NCBI GenBank assembly: GCA_951406725.2
Contig: OX597822.1
Coordinates: forward strand, 85,374,001-85,438,000
Direction: 5' to 3'
From: Octopus vulgaris
Lineage: Eukaryota
Length of the DNA stretch: 64,000 nt
The notes under the pieces were generated by a model. The model had not been told where the DNA came from, did not search any database, and saw only the letters and a program-made list of their open reading frames with translations. Shown in pieces: positions 975 through 60,322 of this stretch. Position numbers and translations under genes: made by a program. Within the stretch, counting starts at the first letter, position 1. Every line of letters begins with the position of its first letter.

Positions 975-2200
975 TTTTTGAAGCTAGAACTACGTCGTAT
1001 GAGCATCGGATTGAAAGAGTGCTTGAGTCTGGTAAATGCCAGATTTTATGGGAATGTCTTATTTAACCCTTTGACATTCAGATTATTCTGTCAAATGTAA
1101 AGCTTATGTATTCACACCCTGTAAAATTAATCTTGCATCATTTCATGGCTTTGAGATTTCAATGATGTGATTGTTTATTTTTAAAATGACACAATAAGAT
1201 AGCTATGAATGACCATATCTGACTAGTTTGAACATAAAATAGGTAGAATATTTTGGCCGGATATGGCTGGTTTAAACACTAAAGTGTTAAACGGACAAGA
1301 AGCTAGAAAATGAAAAGCCAGAAGTAACAATAATAGACAAGAAGAAGCAAAGCTGATCCGTCTAGTCGGTTTGATTCCAGGAGTGTAAAGAAAGAAGACG
1401 AAAAAAATTTTTTAATTGTGTTATGTCTGGGGAGAGTCATTCTCTTTTAGTGCCTTATAATTTAACATACTCACCGGTAAAATTTCCATTCATTTCCTTC
1501 TTTACTTTTTTTCAAGTCTTCGTTGCGTCTTGCAAACTTTGCAGTAGTTTTGACTCTGTCCGCTACACTGTGTTCCTTTTAGTTTGTTTGTGCGCATGTG
1601 TGTGGGTTAGCGTGTGTGTGTGTGTGCATACACATGCATGTATGTATGTATGCATGCATGTGTGTGTATTCATGTATGTGGGTGTGTGCATATGTATATA
1701 TGTATATGTGTGTGTGCATTTGTATGTATTCTGTATATTCATGTGTTTGCGTGTCCGTGTGTGTGTGTGTGTGTATGTGTGTGTGTGTGTATGTGTGTGT
1801 GTATGTGTGTGTGTATGTGTGTGTGTGTCCGGTTACGTGTTTCAGTCTTCATTTCCTTAGAACTCATTCTATCGGTTACGGGTACATAAACACACCAACA
1901 TTTAAAGTTTGAAATTGCAAGAATTTGGAATATGAAAAACTGTAACGGTTGTGCCTATAATAATAAATGGTGCATAAGGAATTGTAGGTAAAGATATAGA
2001 CAAATGGTCGAAGGAGATTGGAATAGAATGCCCTGTAGTCCTTATGATTATCAGGAGGGTCTTAAGCACTTGAAAGACTATTGAAAACTAGTGGATGCCT
2101 AAGGTTACAGGTACTAACTTGCTACCCCCACCACCACTATAAATTCTACCAGGAATAATATCAAACCTAAATAAAATCAAAAGCAACAATAATAATAATA
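975..2200 (+). mobile_element. Degenerate R4/Dong-like non-LTR retrotransposon 3' fragment (REL endonuclease), interrupted by insertions
   Basis: Manual translation: YEHRIERVLESGKCQILWECLI (~994-1063), TDKKLENEKPEVTIIDKKKQ (1291-1350), EIARIWNMK..TVVPIII..GIVGKDIDKWSKEIGIE..IIRRVLST* (~1910-2073); ends near (AAT)n. Confidence 0.65.
1067..1286. mobile_element. piggyBac-like MITE (TTAA TSD)
   Basis: TTAA at 1063-1066 and 1287-1290; imperfect TIRs CCCTTTGACATT / AACACTAAAGTG; removing it rejoins the R4-like reading frame (WECLI*TDKKL). Confidence 0.6.
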
Positions 2201-2239
2201 GTTTAAGCAACAAGAACAACAATAATGACAGTGGTTTCA

Positions 2240-2645
2240 AATTATGGCACAAGGCCAGGAATTTCGGATGTGGAGGTTAGTCGATTACATCGATCCCAGT
2301 AATCAGCTGGTACTTATTTTAACGACCCCCGAGACAATGAAAGGCAATGTCGATGTCGGCTGAATTTGAACTCAGAACGTCAAGACGGACGAAATGTCGC
2401 TGAACATTTTGCCCGGCGTGCTAACGATTCTGCCAGCTTGTTTCTATTTGTGGGACAAGATCAGTAATTTTGAAAGAACGGAGCAATTCAATTGCATCGA
2501 CCCAAGTACTGCACTGGTACTATATTTCATCGTCTCCAAAAGGCTGTGAGTCAAACTCGAACTCGATAACATGGAAAATCAAAACGTAGACTCGCTGTTG
2601 TCAATATCGTAAAGGATTTTAAGCAATGCGCTAACGATTCGGCCA
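2240..2645 (-). mobile_element. Two tandem copies of tRNA-derived SINE family 2 (second copy diverged)
   Basis: Reverse complement of the family consensus GAGCTGGCAGAATCGTTAGCACGCCGGGC..GTTCTGAGTTCAAATT..GCCTTTCAT..GGGGTCG..AAGTACCAG. Confidence 0.75.
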
Positions 2646-3153
2646 ATCACATTGGATGACTATTGCTGTTGTTAGTTCATATGCGAGTATGTGTGTGTAT
2701 GTGTGTGTATGTGTGTGTGTGTGTGAGTGTGTGTGTGTGTGCGTGTGTGTGGATATGTGTGTGTGAGACAGTTAGTAATATATAAATATATATAAAAATA
2801 GACAGACATGTATGCGAATATATATACATACATGGATACGTGCGTGTGTGTGTGTACACGCGCGATCTTTATTACTAAAACAAGAACCCTGGACCGAGGT
2901 AACAGGTTTGTCTCAGGCCAGTGTTCAGTGATGGGGCTGTTCTCCCCCGTCACGTCTAACCGCTGAACACACATGGCGCCGTTTCTGTGTGCAAACATAT
3001 GTAAACGGTACGGAAAATGTTCGATTGATTAACAAGAGTTGAGTGGGATCTGAGAGATGGTAGGGCCTGAGAGAGTGTAGGGGCATGGCGGTGGGATGTT
3101 GTGGTCGTGCAGTGTTTGAGGGTTTGCCTATGTGTGTGTGCATACTTGCGTGT

Positions 3154-3202
<49 letters not shown>

Positions 3203-3287
3203 ACTCCAATTCGTCGCAAAATGTTAAAAAGGCGGACAGAGATCGGACATAGAAGTCAAGTAAAGAAAGACGACAGAGAAGGCTAAG

Positions 3288-3614
3288 TACATATACATAC
3301 ATACATACACACACACATACATACATACATACATACATACATACATACATACATACATACATACATACATGCATGCAGGCATGCATACATACATACATAC
3401 ATACATACATACATTCATACATGCATACATGCATACATGCATACATGCATACATACCTACATACAAGCATACATGCATACATACATACATACATACATAC
3501 ATACATACATACATACATGCATACATCCATACATGCATACATACCTACATACAAGCATACATACATACATACATACATACATACATACATACATACATAC
3601 ATACATACATACAT
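3288..3614. repeat. (TACA)n/(ATGT)n compound microsatellite
   Basis: Direct reading; TGCA/TACC variants interspersed. Confidence 0.95.
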
Positions 3615-3805
3615 GCATGGTGGCTCCCCCCTCGTTATCGAGGATGGCCATTGCACGAAGCTTAATCAATGTTGTTATCGTGCAATGCCTGTGCAAGAAG
3701 ATTTTTTTAAAGTGATGAAAGGCTGTGCACTAAGTCAATCCCACTAAGCAACAGCAGCCATAATCCGAAAAGAAGAACAAGTCAACATCATTGGTAACCA
3801 CTGAG
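3614..3805 (-). mobile_element. 3'-terminal fragment of RTE LINE within (ATGT)n
   Basis: Reverse complement AAGCTTCGTGCAATGGCCATCCTCGATAACGAGGGGGAGCCACCATG matches the 3' end of the RTE at 57342-57388; flanked on both sides by (TACA)n. Confidence 0.75.
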
Positions 3806-3873
3806 CATACATACATACATACATACATGCATACATACATACATACATACATACATATACATACATACATACA

Positions 3874-3902
<29 letters not shown>

Positions 3903-3904
<2 letters not shown>

Positions 3905-4948
3905 GGATATGTTAGCAGAAAGCTCTGTGATAATAGTAACATCGATCATCAAAGCATTTTATCATGGACCAATAGCCGGATTACTAACTCACACTTTGAA
4001 GGGTATGCATTTGCAATCTAGGAACAGGAAATATCAACCAAGTACCTGATGCACAAAAGGGACAGAGATTCAGGAAAAGCCATAAAATGTGACAACCGAT
4101 GCAGACTTTATGGGAGTTCACACTGAAGATATTACCTACATCATAAGCAGTTGTCCAAAAATGTTATCACAGTATTATCTACCGATGAGACATGACGTTG
4201 TAGCTAGGATACTCTATAATGAAATCTGTAGGAAGGATAACTCCAAGGACAAAGAAATAAGAGCCCAGAGTATGGTAGAAGCCATAGCCACTCATAATGA
4301 AAAGGAATACAGGTGGAATGTCCCAGTAAAGACCTCAATAAAATGTAAGCACAACAGACCTCATATGATTTGGGATAGAGAAGAGAAACTCTGCACAGTT
4401 GTGGAAATCAGCTGCCCAGCGGATGTTAACATAAAGCTGAAGGTCAGTGAAAAAGAGAACACCTATGATGAACTATTGAGACATCTGCAGTTACTCTATC
4501 CAGATTACAAGTTCAGGTTTATACCTGTAATTATTGGGGCCTTAAATACTAGTCTTGAGAAATTAGGTTTCTCAAAATCAGAAAGGAGAAAGCTAATTCG
4601 AGGACTACAGATCCAATCCATCACTGGGACTGTAAAAATCTGTAAAACTTTCCAGAAGTTTATCATTTAAATATATATAAGTATGTCTAGATATGTAACT
4701 ATATGCATGAGAATAAAACATGCAAATCTGCTCATACATACATTCATACATACAAACATACATACATGCATACATACATACATACATACATACATACATA
4801 CATACATACATACATACATACATACATACATACAAACAAACAAAAATAGCTTGTTGATATTGAAATTCCAATGAAGGCGCCTTGGGTCTAGGTTAGAAAC
4901 CGGTTCTTTCTCTGTTGGCAGGAAATCTTGAAATAAACTGAATAATGA
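3903..4948 (+). mobile_element. 5'-truncated R4/Dong-like non-LTR retrotransposon (CCHC knuckle remnant + REL endonuclease + 3'UTR)
   Basis: HFEGYAFAI*EQEISTKYL..CDNRCRL (frameshift) EDITYIISSCPKM..MRHDVVA..KHNRPH..VVEISCPAD..EKENTY..IPVIIGAL..TVKICKTFQKFII* (ORF 4089-4670); flanked by (TACA)n on both sides. Confidence 0.85.
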
Positions 4949-5043
4949 TATACATACATACATACATGTACACTCACATACATTCATACAGACACACATA
5001 TACATATATGAGTATATATGTATGAGTACCTATACAAATACAA

Positions 5044-5092
<49 letters not shown>

Positions 5093-5379
5093 CATCAGCT
5101 CTTGCAGCTCCAGGGAATTTCATTCACTAATTTGCATATTATAATGGTTTAACATTTTATTTTGATATCCGATGCCTGATATTATAACTTCTGGCGTGTT
5201 TTTTCAACTTTTTCTGTATATATAATTTCTTTAGGTTCCTTTCGGTTCCAGAATACCTTTTTTTTTTTATTGAAATTTAATGCTATGACTATTCTTTAAC
5301 TTATTTCTTTAAAGATTGATTCAAATTTCTTTGGTATTCTTTATCCAACCAACGACTCTCACATTTTTCGATATATATA

Positions 5380-5538
5380 AAGGGAGAATTCACCAAAAAC
5401 AACAGACAAGGACAGGTGGTGTAGACAACAAACAGATGTATTAGTATAACGCTCGGGAAGTGAAAAAGTCTTTAACGTTTCGAGCCTGCAATCTTCCACA
5501 GAAAGAAACAAGGAGAGTAAGTAACGTGTAGTGGCTAA

Positions 5539-5542
<4 letters not shown>
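5380..5542 (-). mobile_element. Short non-coding HHR-bearing element, family B
   Basis: Homologous to 14458-14668, 36885-37035 and 57462-57630; minus strand TCTTT-CTGTGGAA-GATTGCAGGCTC-GAAA-CG-TT-AAAGA; flanked by (TA)n. Confidence 0.65.
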
Positions 5543-5578
<36 letters not shown>

Positions 5579-5774
5579 ATATATATAGTCATGGTATGTT
5601 CTGTTAACAACATAGTAGAGTACAATACAAAGCTCGTCCATCGTCAGATATCACCCTGTGTTATCCAGCACTTCCAAGTTTGTGTTTAGGTATCGGTCGT
5701 ATGTGAATAGAAAATTGAAAAAATTAGCGTCAACAAGGAGTCAACAAGACTCCAATTTTTAAAATTATATAAAC

Positions 5775-5875
<101 letters not shown>

Positions 5876-5900
5876 TGCGTGTATATATATATATATATAT

Positions 5901-6216
5901 ATATAATAACTATTTAATAAATAAAACATATGCATACATACATATATGTACATACCTACATCTAACATGCATTGAGTCGAAACAGGGGCAGCTGATGAAG
6001 GGGAATATTCCTTGTATTGTTTGTCTTGTACTCTGTTTTTTCGTTGTTAAAAAAAAGTCCGTTTCCTTGTTTGATTTTATGTTTTCGTTTCTCGTTGTGT
6101 TCTACGTTTATTTGTGGTGTCCTGTACTCATATATGCATGTATATATACATATAGATGTAGGTATGTACATATATGTATGTATGCATATGTTTTATTAAT
6201 TAAATTGTTATTATAT
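5901..6216. repeat. Inverted repeat (~64-bp arms) around a ~190-bp spacer
   Basis: 5901-5964 is the near reverse complement of 6153-6216. Confidence 0.85.
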
Positions 6217-6351
6217 GATTGAACGCCATACGTCGTTTTCTTCTCCAAGTAAGTATATATTTCCCTTCTTTCCTGAGCGTCAAATAATACTTTAATTGTT
6301 CCACGTCCTCGCGTTGCTGTGTTTTTTCTGTGTTTTCTTGTTTGGATTAAC

Positions 6352-6496
<145 letters not shown>

Positions 6497-6835
6497 CATA
6501 TATATGTATGTATATGCCGGTATTATCTTATACATAAATATATTATGTTGCACAGTCAAAATTATCTTTTATTTCTCTATTGGTAATTGATATAGCAATC
6601 GTTCATAATTAATACAGCAATCGTTCGCCCTCGAAAGTAGGGAATTTTACCGTCAACTTCTCATCTTATCCATTTATTTATGTTTTCCGACAATGGCTTT
6701 TGTGGGGAAACTTTAAAATTGCCCATGATAACAATCCGACTCGCGCAAGTTAAGAAAAATTCTAATATGCTCCAGTCAACTGTTAAAATAATCGGTAATA
6801 AAAACATCGAACAGCGTCTTTTTCACCGCCCGACA

Positions 6836-7094
6836 GGGATGTAAACACACCCACATTGGTTGCCAAGCGGTGGTGGTGGGACAAACAGAGACAAAAAGAC
6901 ACACACATAGATATATACATATAAGTTGGGCTTCTTTCAGTTTCCATCTATCAAATCCACTCACAAGGCTTTGATCGGCCCGAGACTATAGTAGAAAACA
7001 CTTACTAGCCCAAGGTGCCACGCAGTGGGACTGAACTTGGAACCATGTGGTTGAGAGAAGCACGCTTCTTACCACACAACCACGCCTGCACCTA
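6836..7094 (-). mobile_element. SINE family 1 (partial)
   Basis: Reverse-complement match to the family 1 head and core. Confidence 0.8.
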
Positions 7095-7343
7095 TGAAAA
7101 ATTTTATTACACACTTAAAAATAAGACAAAAATATATAAGAATCGTAATTGAGAAGTCTGTAATTCTTCCATAATCCATTCATATAAAAAATAATCCTTT
7201 ACTGTTTTATTAGTTTCAGCTCGAGAGTTGTGGCCAAGCTGGGGTATCGCCGTTCAACTTAATGCAACATTCCACCAATAGTGTGTCCCACATCGAATAG
7301 AAAAAAATATGTAATTAACCGGTTAATATTATTCCTACTATGA

Positions 7344-7525
7344 AGGCGACCAGCTGGCAGAAACGTTAGCACGCCGGGCGAAATGCTGAGCAGTATTTCG
7401 CCCATCGCTACGTTCTGAGTTCAAATACCACCCAAGTCGACTTTGCCTTTTATCCTTTCGGGGTCGATAAATTAAGTACCAGTTGCGTACTGGAGTCGGA
7501 CCTTGTGCCTAGAGTAGAAAAGAAT
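7344..7525 (+). mobile_element. SINE family 2
   Basis: GGCGACCAGCTGGCAGAAACGTTAGCACGCCGGGCGAAATG..GAGTTCAAATAC..GCCTTTTATCCTTTCGGGGTCGATAAATTAAGTACCAG. Confidence 0.85.
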
Positions 7526-7840
7526 ATTACATCTATATATCAGATGGCGAACGGTTCGGTGTTTTGAAAATTTAGGCAATTATGAATGTATCAGCCGTGC
7601 AATTAAGCTAAATCGCCTCTTTCTTTCGCTCTCTCTTTGTCACTGTCCGTTTCATTCTTTGTCACTTTCTCTTTCTCTCTTTGTGTGTATATATATATAT
7701 AAATATATATATGTATTCATACATACTTATATTCGAATAAATTTATATAAACAAGGATAAGATCGATATTTAAATACCCATCTTATCAATGGCCAGCAAT
7801 GGGAATAAAAACCGTCAAAGGTAATAATGATTTAAAATCA

Positions 7841-8138
7841 TAATTTAGGATATCTAAGAGGTACCACCACGCTGGAAATAGTAGTCAAAACTTGACTCTA
7901 AAACCACATTAAATGTTCATACAGCACCAGGGGAGAAGACAAAGCGACAAAATAAACTAGCAAAAAAAAAAAAATACTGGATAATTCCAGATCTGGAATT
8001 ATCTAGTAATTTTTTTGCTAGTTTATTTTGTCTCTTTGTCTTCTCTCTTGGTGCTTTATGAACATTTAATATGGTTTTAGAGTCAAGTTTTGACTACTAT
8101 TTCCAGCGTGGTGGTATCTCTTAGATACCTTAAATTAT
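7841..8138. repeat. ~300-bp spacerless palindrome
   Basis: Arms mirror across centre ATAATTCCAGATCTGGAATTAT (7981-8002) with scattered mismatches. Confidence 0.9.
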
Positions 8139-8369
8139 AATTTACATATATTTGTATATATATATATATGTAAACATAATGCATAGACAGACAGAGAGAT
8201 AGAGAGATAGGCAGAGATAGATAATACACAGACAGACAGACAGACAGACACAGCTTGTAATTGTATCTTTTTGTTTGTATCAAACTTAGTTAAATGCTCA
8301 GTTTGTGTGTATAAATACATACATACGTATGTGTGTGTGTTTATATGTATTTATGTGTGTGTACATATG

Positions 8370-8582
8370 TATGTTGTCTTCTGTTTACAATTATTTCTAT
8401 TCTTCCTCTGAGGAAGGAGCTGGTTTCTAACAAACATACAAATCTCCGTCGTTGGAATGTAAATAACAAAAACAGTGTCACATTTTAAACTTTAGAAAAG
8501 TCTTGCGTATTTTGACTCTTCCACTTACATTTGTAACGTGCGAGTTGATTGGTTGATTTCTTTTTCTGAAAATCCAGGGATC
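8370..8582 (-). mobile_element. R4-like LINE 3' end (ORF C-terminus + 3'UTR)
   Basis: Minus strand encodes GFSEKEINQ..GRVKIRKTFLKFKM*, resembling the C-terminus of ORF 4089-4670; related 3' ends at ~22740-22975, 31355-31480 and 35270-35365. Confidence 0.65.
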
Positions 8583-8966
8583 TATAATATTGTGACGGAT
8601 CGTTTGAGGACTCAGATTAGTTGATCTGCTGGAAATATTAGCCAAATATCACTTGAATTACAATACTTTAGTGTCTAGAAAGGCAGAAAATACATCGAAA
8701 AATTTGTGCCGTCAATGCTAAACAACAATAACAACAACAGCAACATAGAGATTTTCTGCACAACAAGATCCAAAATAATACCATCAAAAGTCACTTTAGG
8801 CACCATTAACCAACAGACTTGGTAGTTTCTTGAATGAGATCAGAGTAACTACAAGAATTGCATTAATTCGGAAATCTGTGCCACTAGGAACAGCAGCGAA
8901 CGTTTGAAACTTTATCACTATCTAAGAAAGCAAGTTGCTACGCTGAATCAACATTTGTACATATCA

Positions 8967-9121
8967 AAGAAGAAGAAGAAGAAGAAGAAGAAGAAGAAGA
9001 AGAAGAAGAAGAAGAAGAAGAAGAAGAAGAAGAAGAAGAAGAAGAAGAAGAAGAAGAAGAAGAAGAAGAAGAAGAAGAAGAAGAAGAAGAAGAAGAAGAA
9101 GAAGAAGAAGAAGAAGAAGAA
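8967..9121. repeat. Pure (GAA)n, ~51 units
   Basis: Direct reading. Confidence 0.98.
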
Positions 9122-13629: not shown

Positions 13630-14245
13630 TCTTTTACTTGTTTCAGTTATTTGACTGCGGCCATGCTGGAGCACCGCCTTTAGTCGAGCAACTCGACCCC
13701 AGGACTTATTCTTTGTAAGGCTAGTACTTATTCTATCGGTCTCTTTAGCCGAACCGCTAAGTTACGGGGACATAAACACACCAGCATCGGTTGTCAAGCG
13801 ATGTTGGGAGGACAAACACAGACACACAAACACACACACACATATATATATAGACATATACACGACAGGCTTCTTCCAGTTTCCGTCTACCAAATCTACT
13901 CACAAGGCTTTGGTCGGCCCGAGGCTATAGTAGAAGACACTTGCCCAAAGTGCCACGCAGTGGGACTGAACCCGGAACCATGTGGTTGGTAAGCAAGCTA
14001 CTTACCACACAGCCACTCCTGCGCCTCTATATATATATATTCTTTTATTGTTTTTTCTTTCAGTTATTTGACTGCGGGCATGCTGGAGCACCGTCTTTAG
14101 TCGAACAGACCGTCCCAGGACTTATTCTTTGTAAGCCTAATACTCATTCTATCGGTCTCTTTTGTTGAACCACTATGTTACGGGGGCATAAACATACCAA
14201 CATCGGATGTCAAGCGATGGTGGGGAGACAAACACAGACACACAA
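13630..14245 (-). mobile_element. SINE family 1, near-complete copy (13630-14026) plus 3' part of a second copy (14055-14245)
   Basis: Minus strand begins GGCGCAGGAGTGGCTGTGTGGTAAGTAGCTTGCTTACCAACCACATGGTTCCGGGTTCAGTCCC and ends GAAACAAGTAAAAGAG. Confidence 0.9.
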
Positions 14246-14249
14246 ACAA

Positions 14250-14414
14250 CAACGCGAGGACGTAGTACAAGTGCTGTGTTATTGGACGCTCAAGAAAGGA
14301 AAGAAAAGAAACAGGATTTCACGTTTCGAGCGGAGCTCTTCATCAGAAATATAGGGAACGTGCAAAGAAGGGAAGACGAAGAAAGAAAATCGCCAACGAT
14401 ACACTCGCGGTCAC

Positions 14415-14415
<1 letters not shown>
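14250..14415 (-). mobile_element. Short non-coding HHR-bearing element, family A
   Basis: Homologous to 24030-24245 and 36301-36506, with partial copies at 6270-6352 and 19026-19115; abuts (TA)n. Confidence 0.7.
14316..14350 (-). ncRNA. Minimal type I hammerhead ribozyme-like motif (GUG at cleavage site, probably inactive copy)
   Basis: ATTT-CTGATGA-A-GAGC(TCC)GCTC-GAAA-CG-TG-AAAT; palindromic ACGT stem III. Confidence 0.65.
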
Positions 14416-14457
<42 letters not shown>

Positions 14458-14458
<1 letters not shown>

Positions 14459-14666
14459 CGGGAAGGTTTACGAAAATAAACAAAAGACGAAGGCAGGTGG
14501 AGTACAAACAAACAAATGTATTAATATGGCGCTCAGGAATAGAAATAGAACAAGTCTTTTACGTTTCGAGCCTAAGCTCTTCGACAGAAAGATACACAGA
14601 AAAAAAACAAGGAGAGAAACAAGGAGAGAAAAAAATGCGTGTAGGAGCTAACGATCTATCATGGCG

Positions 14667-14668
<2 letters not shown>
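14458..14668 (-). mobile_element. Short non-coding HHR-bearing element, family B
   Basis: Minus strand TCTTT-CTGTCGAA-GAGC(TTAG)GCTC-GAAA-CG-TA-AAAGA at 14555-14592; flanked on both sides by (TA)n. Confidence 0.7.
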
Positions 14669-14706
<38 letters not shown>

Positions 14707-18946: not shown

Positions 18947-19026
<80 letters not shown>

Positions 19027-19114
19027 TTAATCCAAACATGAACAAAGAGAAAACACAACAACGCGAGGACGTGGAACAGGTATAGTGTTATTTAACGCTC
19101 ACGAAAGGAAAGAA

Positions 19115-23995: not shown

Positions 23996-24029
23996 TATAC
24001 ATACATACATATATATACATATATAATTT

Positions 24030-24245
24030 TAATCCAAACGGGAAAACAAAAAAACAACAACAATGGAACAATTACAGTATTATTATTAATAGGCGCTCAG
24101 GAAATATGGAAGCAGGAAGGTATGACGTTTCGAGCGGAGCTCTTCGTCGGAAACATAAAGAAGGAAGAGAGAGGAAAGAAAGATCCCAAAGCGGGCAACA
24201 GGAGATGGAGAAAAAAACGACTGGTGTTTACGAGTTACACATGGT
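24030..24245 (-). mobile_element. HHR-bearing element family A
   Basis: Minus strand GTTT-CCGACGA-A-GAGC(TCC)GCTC-GAAA-CG-TC-ATAC at 24120-24154. Confidence 0.65.
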
Positions 24246-24859
24246 GAAAGGCGGAAGTTTACGATAAACAAGAGCAAAGTAGGTTTTTAAAGCCAAAAGA
24301 GTGGAGACAGGGTTGGTAACGCAACAGATGTTTGTGTATGTGTGAGTGTGTGCGTGTGCGTGTGTGTATGTGTGAGTGTGTGCGTGTGCGTGTGTGTATG
24401 TGTGTGTGAGGCGAGATAAAAAAACAAAAAATATATGTATGTGTTAGTGTGTGCGTCTGTGTGTAGGCGTGTGAGGTAGGGCGAGACAGTAGTAGGCATA
24501 GCAGACAGTGGTCAGTAGTAAGAAAATGAAGGAAGGAGGAAGGGAGGGAGGGGAAGGGGTGGGGGCGTATGTAGCGTGCCAGCGTGTGTTGAGTAGTAGT
24601 GTGTGTGTGTGTCCAGTGTCGTGGTAGTATTAATGGCGAGTAGATTGAATGTGTGTAAGAGTAATGTATATATTTAAGCAATGTGTGTGTGTGAGTGGGT
24701 GTGTATATGTGTGCGCGTGTGTGTAACAAAAGGACTCCAGCTGAGGGGAAGATGGAAGAGTGGTCCCGCGGAGACGGGCGTGGGAAAACCCAACGACAAG
24801 CGACGGTCCCAGGAACGAGCGGGAGGTCTCGTCGGGTCCAAGAGCGAGGTGCATGCAGC

Positions 24860-26409
24860 GCGTATGCGTGCGCGAACCGGCGCAAGCGCGTGTGTGCGCG
24901 CGCCTGCGAGTATGCGCGTAAGTATGTATGTGTGTGGATGTGTGAGTGTGTCTGTGTGTATGTCTGGGTGTCAGTGTGTCCGATGAATGTATGTGAGTAT
25001 GTGTGTATATATGTGTGTGCATAGATGTATGTCCGTGTGTGTGTGTGTGTGTATGTGTATGAGTGTGTATGTATGTACGTGTGGGTGTGTGGAAGTGTGT
25101 GTATGTGCATGTGTGTGCGCGTACATACAGGTGTGTGTGTGAGTGTGTGTGTGTATGTATGTGTGAGTGTGTATGTATGTGTGTAGGATGCATGTATGTG
25201 CATGGGTGTATGTATGTGTATGTGTATGTATGTATGTGTACGTGCGTGTGTGTGTGTGTATGCGTGTAGGTGTGCGCGTGTGCATGCATGCATGCATGTG
25301 CGTATGTGTGTGTGTGTGCATGTGTGTGGGTATATATGTATGTGCGTATATGTGTGTGTATGTGCGTACATGTGTGTGTGTGTATGCATGTGTGTGTATG
25401 TAGGTGTGTAGGCGTGTGTGTATAGGTGTATGTATGTAAGTATGTATAGGTGTATGTATGTAAGTATGTATGGGTGTGTCCGTGTATGTGTGTGTATGTA
25501 GGTGTGTGGGCGTGTGTATATAGGTGTATGTATGTATGTCTGGGTGTGTCCGTGCATGTTTGTGTGTGTGTATGCATGTGTATGTAGGTGTGTGTGTACG
25601 TGTGTAATGTATGTGTGTATGCGTGTGTGTGCGTGTGTATGCGTGCGTGTGTGTATGTAGGTGCGTATGTATGTGTGTGGGAGTGTAGGTGTGTGTGTGC
25701 GTGTGCGTGTTTATATTGGTGTGTGCGTATGTGAGTGTGAGTGTATGGGTGTTTGTCATGCATGTGTGTGCGCGTGCAGGCGAGTGTGTGTGTAAGTATG
25801 TGTGTGTGTATGTTTGTGTGAGTGTGTATGTGTGTATGTCTGTGTGTATGTATGTGCGTATAGGAGTATGTAGGTATGTGTGTGTGTATGTGTATGGGTG
25901 TGTGTATGTATGTGTGTGTGTGTGCATGTGTATAAGTATATGTGTGTGTGCGTATGTGTGTGTATGTGTATGTGTGTGTGTTTATGTAGGTGTGTATGTA
26001 TGTGTGTAGGCGTGTGTGTGTAGATGTATGTATGGGTGTGTGTCTGTGTGTGTTTGTGTGTGTGTGTAGGTAGGTGTGTGTGTCTGAGTGAGGGTATGGC
26101 TGTGTAGGTGTGTGTGTGTATGAATGTAAGTGTGTGTGTGTACAAGTGTAATGTATGTATGTAGGTGTGTGTGTGTGTGTATGTGTACGTGTGCGTGTGT
26201 ATGTGTGTGTGTGTATGCGTGTGAGTGTGAGTGTATGGGTGTATGTCTGTGTGTGTGTATGTCTGAAGTAGGTATGTGTGTGTATGTATGTATGTGTGTG
26301 TGTGTGCGGGTATGTGTGTGTGTGTGTGTGTATGTGTGTGTGTGAGTAGGTGTGCGTGTATGTATGTGGGTAGGGATGCGTGCGAATATATATACATACA
26401 TACATACAT

Positions 26410-26415: not shown

Positions 26416-26462
<47 letters not shown>

Positions 26463-26591
26463 TAAAAAGAATTCCAACCTTGTCTGATTTTCACGTTTTA
26501 TTTACAATCTTATAATGATATATTATAAGATAATATATTATAATTGAATAAAATAAAATGAAATAGTAGAATGTTAAATATTCATTCTGAT

Positions 26592-26636
26592 TGAACTAGT
26601 ACTTTCATGCATTGAATTCTGCAATCTTCGGGTTCA
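26592..26636 (-). ncRNA. Minimal HHR-like motif in PLE1 3' region (U4C core)
   Basis: TGAAC-CCGAAGA-TTGCA(GAATTCAA)TGCAT-GAAA-GTAC-TA-GTTCA; palindromic AGTACT stem III, CUA triplet. Confidence 0.7.
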
Positions 26637-27130
26637 TGTAGTAGTGTTGACAGTCATGCTTCACAATTTTTGACTGTAGCAAGATGAGTGATTCTGTGCT
26701 ATAAATACAGCTGGGTAGGCTCCAGAGTGCTAGGTTTTGCAAACTGTATTCTGACCAATCAGTGTGTAGTATCACTCAATTACTTAAGCTGATTGGTTGG
26801 TTGAGCTGATTGGTTTAGGCATCACGCTTTGTTGGACAGGTCAAGAGTCCTGTATCTTGACCCTGGCCGAAGCAGCAATTGTTGGGTTATTTTTAGAAAT
26901 GTTGTAAATATCCTTTGTCAGAGATTTTTATATTTTTATATTTCAATTGTCATCATCATCATTGTCAGCACCTTAATTATTGTTGCTAGTGGTGATGGTG
27001 GTGGCAATAGAACTTTTAACCCTAAATAAGATAATTTTCCTGCTATCTTCGTCTTGATCACCTTTAGTATTGTTGTTGTTGTTAGTGGTCATGGTCGTAG
27101 CAGTGGAAGTAATACCTCTAAGTATTATTA

Positions 27131-28543
27131 TTATTGCTTATTTAGCTTGGGTTCGAATTTATCAATAAAATTCTTTTCTCTGATTTTCCTCTCGATTTCA
27201 CTTGGGCTGTGTAATTTGTAGAATGGAAATATTATATATATTTTCCGACCACATGTTGCTAGGTGGTTACTCAAAGGTATCTGACGGACCTCTGGGTCTC
27301 TAATCTGTTGCCGGTGTACACGTGAGCGTTCTAATAGTGCGTTTCCCGTCTGACCTACATATATTTCTTCACAATTTGGGCATTTGATGCAGTAAATTAA
27401 ATTTCTGCTTTTGCAGTTCATATTCGCGTTTGTGAATATTTTCCCGGTTTTTGTGTTTATATATTGACCGGTATGTATGAATTGGCATGTGCCACATCGG
27501 CTATCATTGCATTTAGATACCGTGAATGTTTGGTCTTTGTTGCTGAGGTCAAATTTTGCCTTTGTTAGTAATGTTTTCAAGTTTTTAGGCTGTCTTTTAC
27601 TAAGCACCATAGCTCGATCCTTGATTATGTCTTTTAATTCATTACTTTGGGCAATGATTGGTAGGTTTGCTTTGGCAATGTTGAAGATATTCTGGTGACA
27701 TGGGTTGTGTGTCACTATGAATGGTATGACTTGTTCTTGTTTTCCTCTTCCTTGGGTTGTCCTAAGTTGTTGTATAGGTATTTTTATAGCCCGCTGTATG
27801 CCATTTTCTATAAGTAGAGATGGGTATTTTTGTTTGAGCAAAAATTCTCTTAGTTCTATTAGGCGTTTGTTCCTGATATTTGCATCTTCTACAATAGTAC
27901 AAATTCTTCTGGCTAGGCAGTATGGGATGTTACGTTTTGTATGTGGTGGATGGCACGACTTAAAATTTAGGTATTGATGTGTGTCTGTGTGTTTATAGTA
28001 TATATCTGTGGTGATGGTGGTGTCTTTTTTAATTACCATTATATCCAGGAATGGTAATTTGGTACTACTCATCTCCTTTGTAAATTTGAGAGATGGGTGT
28101 AGGTTGTTCAGGAGGATATTGAACTCTTCCAGAGTATTTAGAGATTCTGTCCAGATTATGAAACAGTCGTCTAGGTATCTCTTCCATGCCTTTTCAATAT
28201 ACTTTCTAAATCCAGTGCCATAGTTTACCTCCACCTCTTGGTAGAGTTGTTCTTCTAAGTATCCCATTACAGAGTTGGCGTAAACGGGAGCAAACCTCGT
28301 TCCCATCGCCGTGCCTCTAATTTGGATGTAATTCTTTCCATTGAAGAAGAATGTGTTATTTTCTAGAATAAGTTTGACTGTGTCTAATATAAATGGCACT
28401 GTGAATCTGCTGGGAATCACTTCTCTATGTTTTTCTAACCAGTATTTAATCGCCTTTATTCCTAAATCGTGTGGAATATTGGTGTAGAGGCTTACCACAT
28501 CAAAACTTAGTAAAACTGAATTTGTTTCTGTTGTTTTGGGAAG
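27131..28543 (-). CDS. Penelope-like reverse transcriptase + GIY-YIG endonuclease (5'-truncated)
   Basis: Frame stays open upstream of the called start (LPKTTETNSVLLSFDVVSLYTNIP); GTAMGTRFAPVYAN, WKRYLDD, LPFLD, Cys linker CNDSRCGTC, NLIYCIKCPNCEEIYVGQT, REKNFIDKFEPKLN; no internal stops. Confidence 0.93.
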   Translation of the reverse strand, partial: LPKTTETNSVLLSFDVVSLYTNIPHDLGIKAIKYWLEKHREVIPSRFTVPFILDTVKLILENNTFFFNGKNYIQIRGTAMGTRFAPVYANSVMGYLEEQLYQEVEVNYGTGFRKYIEKAWKRYLDDCFIIWTESLNTLEEFNILLNNLHPSLKFTKEMSSTKLPFLDIMVIKKDTTITTDIYYKHTDTHQYLNFKSCHPPHTKRNIPYCLARRICTIVEDANIRNKRLIELREFLLKQKYPSLLIENGIQRAIKIPIQQLRTTQGRGKQEQVIPFIVTHNPCHQNIFNIAKANLPIIAQSNELKDIIKDRAMVLSKRQPKNLKTLLTKAKFDLSNKDQTFTVSKCNDSRCGTCQFIHTGQYINTKTGKIFTNANMNCKSRNLIYCIKCPNCEEIYVGQTGNALLERSRVHRQQIRDPEVRQIPLSNHLATCGRKIYIIFPFYKLHSPSEIERKIREKNFIDKFEPKLNKQ

Positions 28544-28799
28544 TATATATATATATATATATACTTTTTAAAGCAAGGACGCTTTAAGTGAGAAAATAAG
28601 AAAAAAGTGGAAATAACGTGAAGAAGGTTAGTACAAAAACTGGAACGAGAAGAAAGTGACGAAACCAAGAAAACTAAGATCCCCGTCCTCCCTGATTGCA
28701 GAAACCACAATACAGTAGGTATAGATCAAAATAACAGAAAATCTGCCAAAGTCTGCGAACCACCAACTAAATTTGACAATTACTCCAATTCGACAAAAG

Positions 28800-35672: not shown

Positions 35673-36240
35673 ATGCCAATAGGGTGTGAGGAACGTAAGA
35701 TAACACACCCTTTTGAATTAATTGTTCCACATGAAGACAATTTAGATGCAACCCATGTTAGGAAAGCGGAGCGTTATGAGACACTACTGGAAGATTGTGC
35801 ATACGCTGGTTGGAGTGCAATACACTTTCCTGTAGGAGTTGGACGTAAGGGGTTTTATTAGGACTAGACTGAAGTGGCGGCTGCTATCAATTGGTGTCCA
35901 ATATCGTCAAACAAAAGCCGTCTTGGAGGAGATCCAGGCGACGCTTGAGTGGGCTAGCCATTGGATATTGCTGGAAAGGAATGAAAAACCTGACTGGAGA
36001 GGTTATGATCCCAAAATGGAGATGTGGTCGAATACTATTCACTCGAAACAGTGAGTGGTGCCTCACATCAATGAAGGTTGGGGTCGGTATGCTGTAAAAG
36101 CTGTTGAGAGGAAGGCCCCGAAACGGTGCATATTCTCTGCTGATAAACCCTGAAACCTACTGGCATCAAGTACTTGGCGTTTTCGACTAAATGCACCCAC
36201 ACTAGTAAGCTGTTTCCAGATAGATGTGTTAATACATACG
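35673..36240 (+). mobile_element. HERO-like non-LTR retrotransposon 3' fragment (REL endonuclease)
   Basis: ELIVPHEDNLDATHVRKAERYETLLEDCAYAGW..FPVGVGRKGF then ..ASHWILLER, matching the ELTVPWEE..ERK..KY..GW..P.EVGCRGF pattern. Confidence 0.75.
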
Positions 36241-36258
36241 CATATATTATCAGTATTC

Positions 36259-36300
<42 letters not shown>

Positions 36301-36305
<5 letters not shown>

Positions 36306-36506
36306 TCCAAACATGAAACACAAAGAGAAAACACAACGCGAGGACGTGGAACAAGTATAGTATTATTGGACGCTCAGGAAAGGAAAGAAAGAAGGAGGAT
36401 TTAACGTTTCGAGAGGAGCTCTTCGTCAGAAACATAGGAAAAGGAAATTTCCAAGGAAGGGAACACAGAGGGAAAAAAATCGCCAACGATACACACGCAG
36501 TCACAT
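36301..36506 (-). mobile_element. HHR-bearing element family A (most complete copy)
   Basis: Minus strand GTTT-CTGACGA-A-GAGC(TCC)TCTC-GAAA-CG-TT-AAAT at 36399-36433; (TA)n on both sides. Confidence 0.72.
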
Positions 36507-36884
36507 ATATAGTTATGGTTTATTCTGCTAAGAATGTAGGAGAGCGCAGTATAAAGCTTGTCCACCTTCAGATTTCACCCTATACAATTCGGTAGTAGTT
36601 GTATTATACGTACTTACAGGTTTGCGTTTGGGATTCTGTCGTGTGTGAATAGATTATTGAAAAAAATTGGAGTCAACAAGAAGGGATATGGATGGACATT
36701 TATTTTTTAATCACTACAATTGTTTCCACGCAGTGTAGTTCTCCGGACGTGCAAGTACTCGATTATGCAACCGTTTCCTCGCATTATGAGGTCTAGTTGT
36801 TTTCTCAGGCGATATATCGCCTGAGGAAACACACACATACATATATGTGTATATATATAAATATACATATACATATGTATATGA

Positions 36885-37035
36885 ATTTTTTCTATTTTCT
36901 ACTTTCTCTTCCTGTTTATTTCTTTGTTCCTTTCTGTCAAAGAGCGTAGGCTTGAAACGTAAAAGACTTTCTCACTTCCCGAGCATTAAACTAATGCACC
37001 AGTTTCTTGTTTAAACACTCGTATTCGTGTATTGT
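36885..37035 (+). mobile_element. HHR-bearing element family B
   Basis: CTTT-CTGTCAAA-GAGC(GTAG)GCTT-GAAA-CG-TA-AAAG at 36930-36966. Confidence 0.65.
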
Positions 37036-37202
37036 TTTTTTTTTTTGTTGTAAATTCTTACTACGTATACATACATACATACATACATACATACATACAT
37101 ACATACATACATACATACATACACATACACACATATATATATACATATATAAATATATATATATATATATATGTGTGTGTATATACATATATATATATAT
37201 AT

Positions 37203-37262
<60 letters not shown>

Positions 37263-37639
37263 AGTAAATGCAGGGATAAGCATGTTAGACCGATCAATAT
37301 ATAAGGTATATAAAATACGTGAAATACAAAAAAATGTATATATGTTTACATAAAAAAAGGGTTCGATATAAATGATATAGAGAATTAAAGGGGGTTAAGG
37401 GAGGTATTACAAATCCAACAGATGTTCCTGGGGGCTCGGTGGTCAAAAATATTGTTTGTAGATTGATTCCATCATAGGATGAGACGTGCCTCCGTCATCA
37501 TGGAAGAAATCTTACATTTGACGTATTCACAGAAAGCAAAAGACGAGCACAGATGAGGGACAATAAGCGGGTTTATTAGTTTGACGCTCGTGTGTCTCTC
37601 TGTCTGTGTGTATGAATGTATGTATGTGTGTATGTGCAG

Positions 37640-57461: not shown

Positions 57462-57630
57462 GATTGACCGCTAGCTACTAAAGCTTTCTCTTTTTATTCA
57501 ATCTCTGTTTATTTTCTCATGTTCCTTTCTGTTGAAGAGCGCAGGCTCGAAACGTAAAAGATTTTCTCACCTTCCTGAGCGTTAAATTAATACACCTGTT
57601 TGTTGTTTACACACCTGTCTTCGTTTTATA
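57462..57630 (+). mobile_element. HHR-bearing element family B
   Basis: CTTT-CTGTTGAA-GAGC(GCAG)GCTC-GAAA-CG-TA-AAAG at 57525-57561; ends in (TA)n. Confidence 0.7.
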
Positions 57631-58399: not shown

Positions 58400-58435
<36 letters not shown>

Positions 58436-58532
58436 ATAAAACGGTAAGATAACAAAAGAAAGAAAGAGACCTCAATATTATGTAAATAGAGGAAATTTAT
58501 CTATACAATATGTTACATTACTCGGTAGTCAA

Positions 58533-58593
58533 GATAAAACTCTGAGTTTCAGATGCCGAAGTGGAAATCCACAACACCATCTCTTCGGTTATC
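58533..58593 (-). ncRNA. HHR-like motif in PLE2 terminal repeat (U4C core)
   Basis: GATAA-CCGAAGA-GATG(...)CATC-T-GAAA-CTCAGAG-TT-TTATC. Confidence 0.7.
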
Positions 58594-58788
58594 TGGCTAT
58601 TTGAAAACGTTATGAAAAAATACCGTTAAAAATGAAGGGAAATTACTCTGTTATAACTCTGCTTTGCCTGCGTACTTATACATCGCTCGCATTTTTCGTC
58701 ATAAAAATTATATAAAAATACATAAAAATATATAAAAATATATAAAAATATATAAAATCTTCTTGGGACATAACACAGAAAGCATGTT

Positions 58789-60135
58789 CTATCCGTTTTC
58801 TTTAGGGGACCAAAAACGTAACAGAAATTTAGTCACATGTGGGCATGATCCGAAAAGCTCTGTCCTTGTATTTAGACATGTGGTAGGGTCTAAGCTGCTT
58901 TTCCAGATAAGCCATCTCTCCATGTCGCATAAACCGCACCTTCCGCTGCCGTTAGTATAGGGCTTACATCTGGCCAAAATCTTCCATTGTATGTTATAAT
59001 CGACACCTTTATCTCTTAAAGACCAAATATGATTGGATAATTGTGTCGCTTTTCTTTTGTTCCAGTGCCTAAAGCTCAAAGTGTGGTTATTGAACCTGGC
59101 CTTGAAATTACCCTCTGTCAGGCCCACGTATTTCTTCGTCGAAACGGTGTCTTTAGTGGTTATAGAGTTTACGGTAGCTTCATATATGATGGTCTTGGAC
59201 ATGCAAGCTCCATTTAGCGGGCACAATTCTTTATTCCTGCATGAACAGCTGTTTTCTTCTTGTGTTTTTTGTATGTTATGATTGTTTATGTTTTTAAAAT
59301 TGGTAGTTGAACTAAAACTAATTTTTAAATTGTGTCTATTGAAGAGTTTCCTATAAGCATGGTTAACTGGAAAATGTCTATCTATCAGTGCTAGGAAATA
59401 TTTACCTATATTGAAGGCCACCTCGGGTGAGTAAGGGGGCGTAAACCAGATGACCTTCCTATTTCTATTATTCCTTTTCCTTATTGTTGGGCTGGTGATA
59501 GGTGTATATTTTATTTTTTCGCTAAAACCACTATCTTTTAAAGCTTTATTATAAACTGGGGCAACGCTATTGAAGATGTCCTCATTAGATGAGAGGCTAG
59601 AAATCCTCTTACTAATATTTTTAACTAAATTTTTGAATACTATAGGGGGATGGCATGAACCTACATTAATATAACTTAGTCTATCATTGGGCTTCCTATA
59701 AGGCTTATAAATATCATTATTAAGATCTAAGGAAACGTCTAAGAAATTGACAACCGTCAGGTTAGTGTCTATAGTTATACTAAGTCCGAAGTGTTTCATT
59801 AACTGGATAATATCCTTCCTAAAACGATCTTGTGCTGGTCCATTTGTATTAGCTGTTAAGGCGAGGGCATCATCTTTGTAGATGGCGAAATGTACGTTAG
59901 GGAATGTCTTACTGAAGGTATCTAGGAGAAAGAGTCCAATTAGATCACAGATGCCTGCCCCATCATATGAACCCATGCTCACATCGAAAGCGCCCTCCGT
60001 GTCGGTGTTTTTTACCCACTTTGCATTCTCACTGAAAAGTAATGTCTTTCTAGCATGGAAGATTATATCCTTATCATTGGTACTAATTTCTATGAAGTCA
60101 CTAGCGAAGATTAGGGCTTTATCTAGCAGTTCTTT
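58789..60135 (-). CDS. Penelope-like RT + GIY-YIG endonuclease (5'-truncated; clade distinct from PLE1)
   Basis: Frame open upstream of the called start (SKELLDKALIFA..HARKTLLF..FDVSMGSYDGAGICDLIG), YKDD, NFLDV, CSCRNKELCPLNGAC, IIYEATV..YVGLTE..FKARFNNH, CGLCDMER. Confidence 0.92.
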   Translation of the reverse strand, partial: KELLDKALIFASDFIEISTNDKDIIFHARKTLLFSENAKWVKNTDTEGAFDVSMGSYDGAGICDLIGLFLLDTFSKTFPNVHFAIYKDDALALTANTNGPAQDRFRKDIIQLMKHFGLSITIDTNLTVVNFLDVSLDLNNDIYKPYRKPNDRLSYINVGSCHPPIVFKNLVKNISKRISSLSSNEDIFNSVAPVYNKALKDSGFSEKIKYTPITSPTIRKRNNRNRKVIWFTPPYSPEVAFNIGKYFLALIDRHFPVNHAYRKLFNRHNLKISFSSTTNFKNINNHNIQKTQEENSCSCRNKELCPLNGACMSKTIIYEATVNSITTKDTVSTKKYVGLTEGNFKARFNNHTLSFRHWNKRKATQLSNHIWSLRDKGVDYNIQWKILARCKPYTNGSGRCGLCDMERWLIWKSSLDPTTCLNTRTELFGSCPHVTKFLLRFWSPKENG

Positions 60136-60238
60136 AGAAAAATGCGAGCGATGTATAAGTACGCAGGCAAAGCAGAGTTATAACAGAGTAATTTCCCTAT
60201 TTTTAACGGTATTTTTTCATAACGTTTTCAAATAGCCA

Positions 60239-60296
60239 GATAACCGAAGAGATGGTGTTGTGATTTCCACTTCGGCATCTGAAACTCAGTTTTATC
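60239..60296 (+). ncRNA. HHR-like motif, inverted copy at PLE2 5' junction
   Basis: GATAA-CCGAAGA-GATG(...)CATC-T-GAAA-CTCAG-TT-TTATC. Confidence 0.65.
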
Positions 60297-60322
60297 GTGT
60301 ACCGAGTGTGTGTGTATTGTAT

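Follow-up and report, generated by a model that had tools for sequence, protein, structure and literature searches.

Background

Minimal hammerhead ribozymes (min-HHRs) are known from the pseudo-LTRs (pLTRs) of Penelope-like elements (PLEs) as type I ribozymes without a real helix III, and are defined by an extra base between positions 9 and 10.1, a G10.1-C11.1 pair and a palindrome at 15.2-16.2 (Cervera & De la Pena 2014, PMC4209133). That study describes thousands of dispersed single motifs per genome, "probably related to truncated PLEs", and reports no in vitro cleavage for single min-HHRs. Animal retrozymes are tandem repeats that give self-paired circles, and the coral study that describes them classed its minimal variants with PLEs and its retrozymes with canonical type I hammerheads (PMC7229834); up to ~126,000 motifs have been counted in axolotl (PMC7229834; 10.64898/2026.07.22.740005). 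A 2026 preprint (Li, Clavereau & Pollet, 10.64898/2026.07.22.740005) derives both retrozymes and their monomers from PLE pLTRs and reports cleavage of one of nine dimers. Among PLEs, targeting of TA has been published for Neptune, Naiad and Hydra elements, and a CX4CxxC linker marks the Neptune/Nematis type (PMC8557442). An annotation of Octopus vulgaris, its text giving no sequences, reports families of Penelope-like elements as well as 893 SINE families that are unclassified and recently active (PMC13282606), and in the literature retrieved for hammerheads, Penelope-like elements and Octopus together, Octopus appeared only for Naiads and the families described below were not found.

Here, we analyse two families of short non-coding repeats, A and B, in a 64-kb stretch of O. 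vulgaris DNA (hereafter the window, i.e., that whole stretch), which is microsatellite-rich animal DNA. Like the pLTR motifs of PMC4209133, these repeats carry a type I hammerhead without a real helix III and with a short stem I, and occur mostly as single dispersed copies of several families per genome. Unlike the motifs described in that study, they have a stem II of 4 bp (vs 7-8 bp in Schistosoma), a U at position 6 in four of four B copies, a clustered 5′ edge in A and a rough 10^4-10^5 copies per family (vs 2,000-9,000 per genome). With retrozymes, as described in PMC7229834 and 10.64898/2026.07.22.740005, they share a short non-coding unit, a type I hammerhead, a relation to PLE pLTRs and dispersed monomers, but neither tandem units (0/10 copies) nor self-paired circles (by prediction) were seen here, and the ribozyme is of the minimal PLE type. 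The putative non-autonomous PLEs of Chlamydomonas (e.g. MRC1; Craig et al. 2021, PMC8557442) are described as pLTR pairs and head-to-tail multimers from a clade mostly without hammerheads, whereas A/B units are single and carry one.

Results

Copies and family relationships

A profile search of the window located ten copies, five A-type and five B-type, seven of them with a ribozyme and three partial (Table 1). All nine copies listed by an earlier, sequence-only reading were recovered at about the coordinates it gave (profile search, blastn), and the profile search added a tenth, the partial B copy at 37526-37590. The A and B copies at 14250-14668, previously taken to lie back to back, are instead head-to-tail, both on the minus strand, where the order is (TA)17, B2, (TA)21, A1 and then a SINE copy that takes the place of the last ~30 nt of A1.

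Table 1 Repeat copies, ribozymes, adjoining tracts and coding Penelope-like elements in the window
Feature	Positions	Strand	Remarks
A1, family A	14250..14415	-	3′ ~30 nt missing where SINE copy (14061-14237) joins
A1 minimal type I hammerhead	14316..14350	-	C3 at 14346; CUGAUGA-A-GAGC/GCUC-GAAACGU; position 17 = G at 14320
(TA)n tract between B2 3′ end and A1 5′ end	14415..14457		TRF
B2, family B	14458..14668	-	TA on both sides; longest 5′ end among B
B2 minimal hammerhead	14555..14592	-	CUGUCGA (U at position 6); 5-bp stem I; position 17 = A at 14560
Common motif TTCCTGAGCG in B2	14530..14539	-	A1 counterpart 14287-14296, one mismatch
(TA)n tract at B2 5′ end	14669..14703		
A3, family A	36301..36505	-	3′ end complete; 5′ junction identical to that of A1
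A2	24029..24245	-	Ribozyme and 3′ end as in A, 5′ part different; upper boundary approximate
Partial A copy	6260..6352	+	Begins ~12 nt past predicted cut site
Partial A copy	19025..19114	-	Begins ~13 nt past predicted cut site
B1, family B	5380..5541	-	Stem II damaged
B3, family B	36884..37062	+	G8 and C11.1 mutated
B4, family B	57462..57628	+	3′-shortened at (TA)6
Partial B copy without ribozyme	37526..37590	-	
5′-truncated PLE	26460..28567	-	478-aa RT-GIY-YIG frame, open; Neptune/Nematis-type CX4CxxC linker; TA at both ends
Hydra-type PLE	58434..60320	-	462-aa open frame; CxCX5C linker; TA at both ends

Copies within each family match closely (blastn E=4e-44 for A1 vs A3 and 1e-21 for B2 vs B1). 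The two repeat families proposed earlier are thus real, but their independence is not, as A3 also matches B2 (E=2.6e-10), A and B are 51-62% identical over aligned columns, and on these alignments the two are sister lineages. A2 is 59-61% identical to A1 and A3 and therefore represents a third lineage. What A and B have in common is the ribozyme, a TTCCYGAGCG motif and a weak overall similarity; the motif, already noticed as shared, has 11 matches with at most one mismatch in the window (1.9 expected), nine of them inside copies. We considered whether this motif pairs with the 3′ strand of stem II and so acts against the ribozyme, and rejected the idea, as A and B show no compensation; the predicted pair probability was 0.49 in B1, 0.17-0.23 in A1 and A2, and at most 0.05 in the other four of the seven.

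The units are non-coding, as had been read from the letters: the longest ATG frame is 2-53 aa in the seven ribozyme copies. A tRNA search of the window found none and terminal inverted repeats were absent in the three copies tested, so that the units show neither the 5′ tRNA head of a tRNA-derived SINE nor the terminal inverted repeats of a MITE. Their sense strand is 64-68% pyrimidine.

The minimal hammerhead

The fold comprises a stem I of 3-5 bp, CUGANGA, an extra A, GAGC/GCUC and GAAACGUH, and its 27-28-nt pattern has four exact matches in the window vs none in each of 100 shuffles. The minimal type I fold that the sequence-only reading had proposed is present in seven copies, but a flawless ribozyme in none: no copy has a canonical core together with a fully paired stem II and a position 17 that permits cleavage. 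The canonical CUGANGA core occurs in two of the seven (A1 and A3), and the defects are G17 in A1, which we take to be non-cleavable by the NUH rule, U4C in A2, a broken stem II pair in A3 and U at position 6 in all four B copies, with further damage in B1 and B3. The extra A and the ACGT palindrome (15.2-16.2) are found in 7/7 copies, and the G10.1-C11.1 pair in six, B3 having G-U. In public contigs, a C at 36414 accounts for about 90% of depth and the majorities have C at 36953 and G at 36939, which restores stem II of A3 and B3; the main forms of the families would therefore have an intact stem II and G8.

Covariation, proposed as a check on the fold, was evaluated on 16 sequences (the seven window copies and nine of 67 outside ones described below, picked for differing flanks). 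Stem I covaries, three of its four pairs changing on both sides. Within the window, the pair in fourth position of stem I is intact in 7/7 copies, with four pair types (A-U, G-U, G-C, C-G). Two-sided change was found in 13 cells, a value reached by one of 500 shuffles, though kinship inflates this statistic; the count of pairs with two-sided change (3) was not above shuffles (351/500). Slid controls pair in 16-38% vs 89% for stem I. Stem II is uninformative on covariation because it is nearly invariant and fixed by the search pattern in the nine outside rows.

Rfam models gave no hammerhead at E<=10 in 14240-14680 or 35950-37060, and none among the best 150 of 357 matches over the window, from which we infer that the motif is smaller than those models can detect. 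A natural A6C hammerhead variant had low activity according to PMC3088659.

Ends, (TA)n and the 5′ edge

Targeting of (TA)n is supported: (TA)3+ lies no more than 6 nt away from 12 of the 20 copy ends vs from 3.2% of background positions, the copy ends having been partly set at the start of TA. The earlier statement that almost every copy abuts (TA)n holds as an enrichment, but the tenth, partial copy adjoins none; the A1 5′ end fails the strict 6-nt rule (9 nt) but adjoins the TRF tract in Table 1, and the B3 ends adjoin mixed TA/TACA tracts. At the 3′ end, TTTGGATTAA directly before TA terminates four of the five A copies, independently. In the four A/B copies whose 3′ ends are intact, 94-102 nt separate the cut site from the 3′ TA. 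The window's two coding PLEs have 105 and 138 nt between cut site and 3′ end, and 20 of the 67 outside loci have 81-115 nt between cut site and a conserved terminal motif. The copies therefore show a ribozyme within the repeat, a fixed 3′ end and a variable 5′ end, as a PLE pseudo-LTR does.

The 5′ ends lie 40-95 nt upstream of the core or just past the cut site. A1 and A3 have the junction near 36506 in common; the 5′ ends of the four B copies differ by about 30 nt, which counts against a fixed B edge, and A2 shows no clear 5′ limit, so that a fixed 5′ edge, as expected of an independent short unit, is suggested for A and not for B. The three partial copies begin 12-24 nt past the predicted cut site, which hints at cleavage, although three copies are too few to establish it.

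For the A edge we aligned Logan public contigs of four runs to 36291-37062 at 80% likeness. Two listed contigs of run X12 follow the A1/A3 junction into TA, and another stops 18 nt short at TA. Contig depth is 0.7-4.9 million up to 36498, and the summed depth on A3 in two DNA runs is 0.8-4.9 million over seven bins, with no steady 5′ fall; past 36506 the loose ends agree for 7 letters and then become AT-rich, with an agreement of 0.48 (76 contigs, X1) to 0.63 (32 contigs, X10). Of the X1 contigs, 76 extend beyond 36506, and an X12 contig with a depth of 165 continues for another 145 nt. As far as contigs can tell, this pattern speaks for a short A template whose end lies some 80 nt before the core; a long parent could still escape notice, given that Logan contigs are interrupted within repeats.

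Abundance and neighbouring repeats

Eight long pieces listed for X1 have a depth of 37-59, and the depth ratio gives roughly 3.6x10^4 (A) and 5x10^4 (B), values to be read as an order of magnitude only since depth is no copy number. Public contig depth thus suggests 10^4-10^5 copies per family and, at that level, bears out the very large genome-wide population expected earlier; the repeats probably sit in tens of thousands of places.

Several other repeats adjoin or resemble these units. A family that we term C (5588-5740 and 36512-36683), in which no hammerhead was found, is about 100-fold rarer than A in DNA contigs; the ratio of A to C was ~1900 in X10, ~23 in X12 and 86-105 in the DNA runs, and the X10 and X12 ratios, from runs only guessed to be RNA, were excluded from the evidence. 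Each of the two C copies is separated by a TA tract from the 5′ end of a co-oriented A/B copy, and the C contigs listed continue ~800-900 nt beyond, so C may be the end of a longer element. A repeated piece at 36690-36830 (depth peak 36707-36732) ends in a near-perfect hairpin, CTCAGGCGATATATCGCCTGAG, by a microsatellite. The TA-flanked stretch 5905-6130 has GAAAC followed by CTGATGA-A and a GGAATATTCC hairpin, and is perhaps a decayed hammerhead of another PLE end. Before A2, a GC-rich patch and a 1.4-kb CA-rich tract (24245-26370) lead to the TA end of a coding PLE in the same orientation, and a longer element whose 3′ region is CA-rich could terminate in A2. The commonest interspersed repeat of the window covers 23 merged intervals and a second family 12 (13630-14237 and about 20 places); both look like SINEs and the source of many CA/TA tails.

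Penelope-like elements outside and inside the window

The link to PLEs drawn in the sequence-only reading is supported by outside loci in which the ribozyme stands behind PLE frames. Metagenomes contain a near-identical 28-nt ribozyme at 67 loci, of which 56 are distinct, and a single MAG contig has it as well, apparently all in animal host DNA; viral contigs gave no match to the motif. Remains of PLE RT/GIY-YIG lie upstream on the same strand in four unrelated animal-type loci, L005 (whose linker is CX4CxxC), L033, L052 and L068; in L055 they are on the other strand. As in A/B, the ribozyme of this Neptune/Nematis-type family (L005, L033, L052, L055, L068) is about 100 nt from the 3′ end and most copies are ORF-less. 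Since 52 of 56 loci lack PLE protein although coding parents exist, the lack of an ORF is no proof of non-autonomy, and since 41 of 55 copies end within 22 nt of the ribozyme start (14 of 55 extend 64-689 nt upstream), a clustered 5′ edge can arise there too. Unlike A/B, the outside family is near (TA)3 in only 3 of 56 loci, its 5′ ends cluster at the ribozyme start, and many of its loci carry inverted 5′ copies, which were seen in 0/10 A/B copies. Homology of the A/B 5′ parts to the outside 3′ UTR, plausible by eye, was rejected (9-212 of 300 shuffles gave equal scores), and since A/B have no significant similarity to these loci beyond the ribozyme, we treat them as structural analogues and not as parents.

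Many outside copies (L001-L067) have their start ~6 nt before the ribozyme, often with an inverted copy joined, and roughly 25-30 nt downstream of a CCAAT and a TATA-like motif, which looks like a transcription start at the ribozyme. PLE sequences also occur in records filed as bacterial genomes or symbionts (L068; proteins P0012, P0016 and P0061), which are likely host DNA contamination.

The window itself holds two coding PLEs (Table 1), and one retroelement protein of the window has its best named relatives in bivalve molluscs (50-59% identity). The 5′-truncated element at 26460-28567 has its own minimal hammerhead (C3 at 26631) with a CCGAAGA core and an AGTACT palindrome, upstream of which CCAAT-like and TATA-like words occur; it is a possible source of the enzymes for A/B, not their sequence parent. 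The Hydra-type element, in which Pfam recognised no family, has a hammerhead at 58588 whose loop II is long, and carries at its 5′ end a terminal copy in inverted orientation (60137-60307). Both were rejected as sequence parents of A/B (best E=0.11). Neither the window nor the public contigs examined yielded a parent carrying an A/B terminal repeat, and a PLE protein profile found no remains upstream of any of the ten A/B copies.

Discussion

We consider it very probable that A and B derive from PLEs, and, with odds that we put slightly better than even, that they are short PLE pseudo-LTR (3′ terminal) units that move by enzymes supplied in trans and whose ribozyme mostly remains uncut. The earlier wording, "retrozyme-like or solo pLTR", holds in its second half, a solo or non-autonomous pLTR unit fitting the data, and is weaker in its first. 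Under such a mechanism, the RT and GIY-YIG endonuclease of a coding PLE would copy the non-coding units into (TA)n in trans. A short RNA, transcribed from a master copy or from a promoter in the pLTR, would begin some 80 nt before the ribozyme and run into the flanking (UA)n; the TA-targeting endonuclease would nick (TA)n, reverse transcription would be primed at the nick, and the 5′ junction would be closed by AT microhomology at, or short of, the RNA 5′ end. Because helix III, an ACGU palindrome, would require a partner copy, we propose that the ribozyme of a single copy mostly stays uncut and the unit is therefore copied whole; the U6 of B would weaken the ribozyme further, and an occasional cut would give the partial copies that begin just past the cut site.

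A somewhat unlikely alternative, though one to be taken seriously, is that no short unit moved alone and the copies are 5′-truncated, dead-on-arrival ends of long autonomous PLE families (at least three subfamilies). Constant 3′ ends with the variable 5′ ends given above are what truncation leaves, the 52 of 56 ORF-less outside loci show it happening where parents exist, and the three diverged lineages resemble successive waves; published accounts agree in so far as most PLE insertions are described as 5′-truncated with a single terminal repeat (10.64898/2026.07.22.740005) and single min-HHRs are ascribed to truncated PLEs (PMC4209133). Against truncation, A1, A3 and the two listed X12 contigs stop at the same base, contig depth lacks a steady 5′ decay and the loose ends disagree after 7 letters, the profile found no PLE protein remains upstream of 10/10 copies, and none of six A1, A3 and B copies exceeds about 81 nt upstream, compared with 14 of 55 outside (small numbers). 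A bolder version of the short-unit reading, which we regard as improbable, makes A (perhaps B) a stand-alone ~210-nt "PLE-SINE", i.e., a pLTR with a silenced hammerhead whose monomers would have reached ~10^5 via TA tracts only; read-through of head-to-tail B2-(TA)n-A1 would then give mixed double hammerheads and chimeric unit RNAs, and microsatellites would be the birthplace of retrozymes.

True non-LTR retrozymes, with tandem masters giving circular unit RNAs and monomers being permuted copies opened at an internal (UA)n, appear very doubtful to us. Same-family tandems occur in 0/10 window copies, and the sole pair is the mixed B2-(TA)n-A1. Its two members share an orientation, their cut sites are separated by 240 nt and they could form a 4-bp ACGU/ACGU helix, but the double-hammerhead fold lies 26 kcal/mol above the minimum with stems I of only 3 bp and would have to cut at G17 and use a U6 core. 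The unit size (160-215 nt) is within the retrozyme range, monomers are common in some retrozyme families, and TA on both sides is compatible with opening at (UA)n; yet no go-back joint occurs among the 15 joints listed (39 more existed, and contigs break at TA), three of three units folded as circles are predicted to be no stabler than shuffles (z -0.6, +0.9 and +2.0), and the units are pyrimidine-rich. The published coral retrozymes, in addition, carry canonical type I hammerheads (PMC7229834).

The probability that the units are a tRNA-derived SINE on the opposite strand, with a coincidental hammerhead, is in our view close to negligible, and this reading is already largely refuted. It rests on GCTCAG and TTCGAG(C/G) as A and B boxes, the reverse strand showing by eye CGCTCAGG about 27-35 nt before TTTCGAGC. 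The boxes, however, would start about 70 nt inside the element, and partial copies would retain the head and lose the tail, the opposite of SINE truncation; no tRNA was called, stem I covaries, and the same motif stands behind PLE frames.

Conclusions

The kind of element described here is already known, and A and B themselves, how densely they occur and the U6 core may be new to the literature, although the repeat library of PMC13282606 or the supplements of the papers cited may hold A and B. If the copies are only truncated ends, the result is routine repeat annotation. A very abundant and easily misfiled repeat of the octopus genome (likely "unknown" or SINE) is probably to be assigned to a Penelope origin, and the families supply a large natural collection of variants of the minimal hammerhead, among them a core with A6U throughout one family. 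Whether a PLE hammerhead has to cut for transposition is called unclear in PMC8557442, and if the units move by themselves, they would offer a clean test of whether it must.
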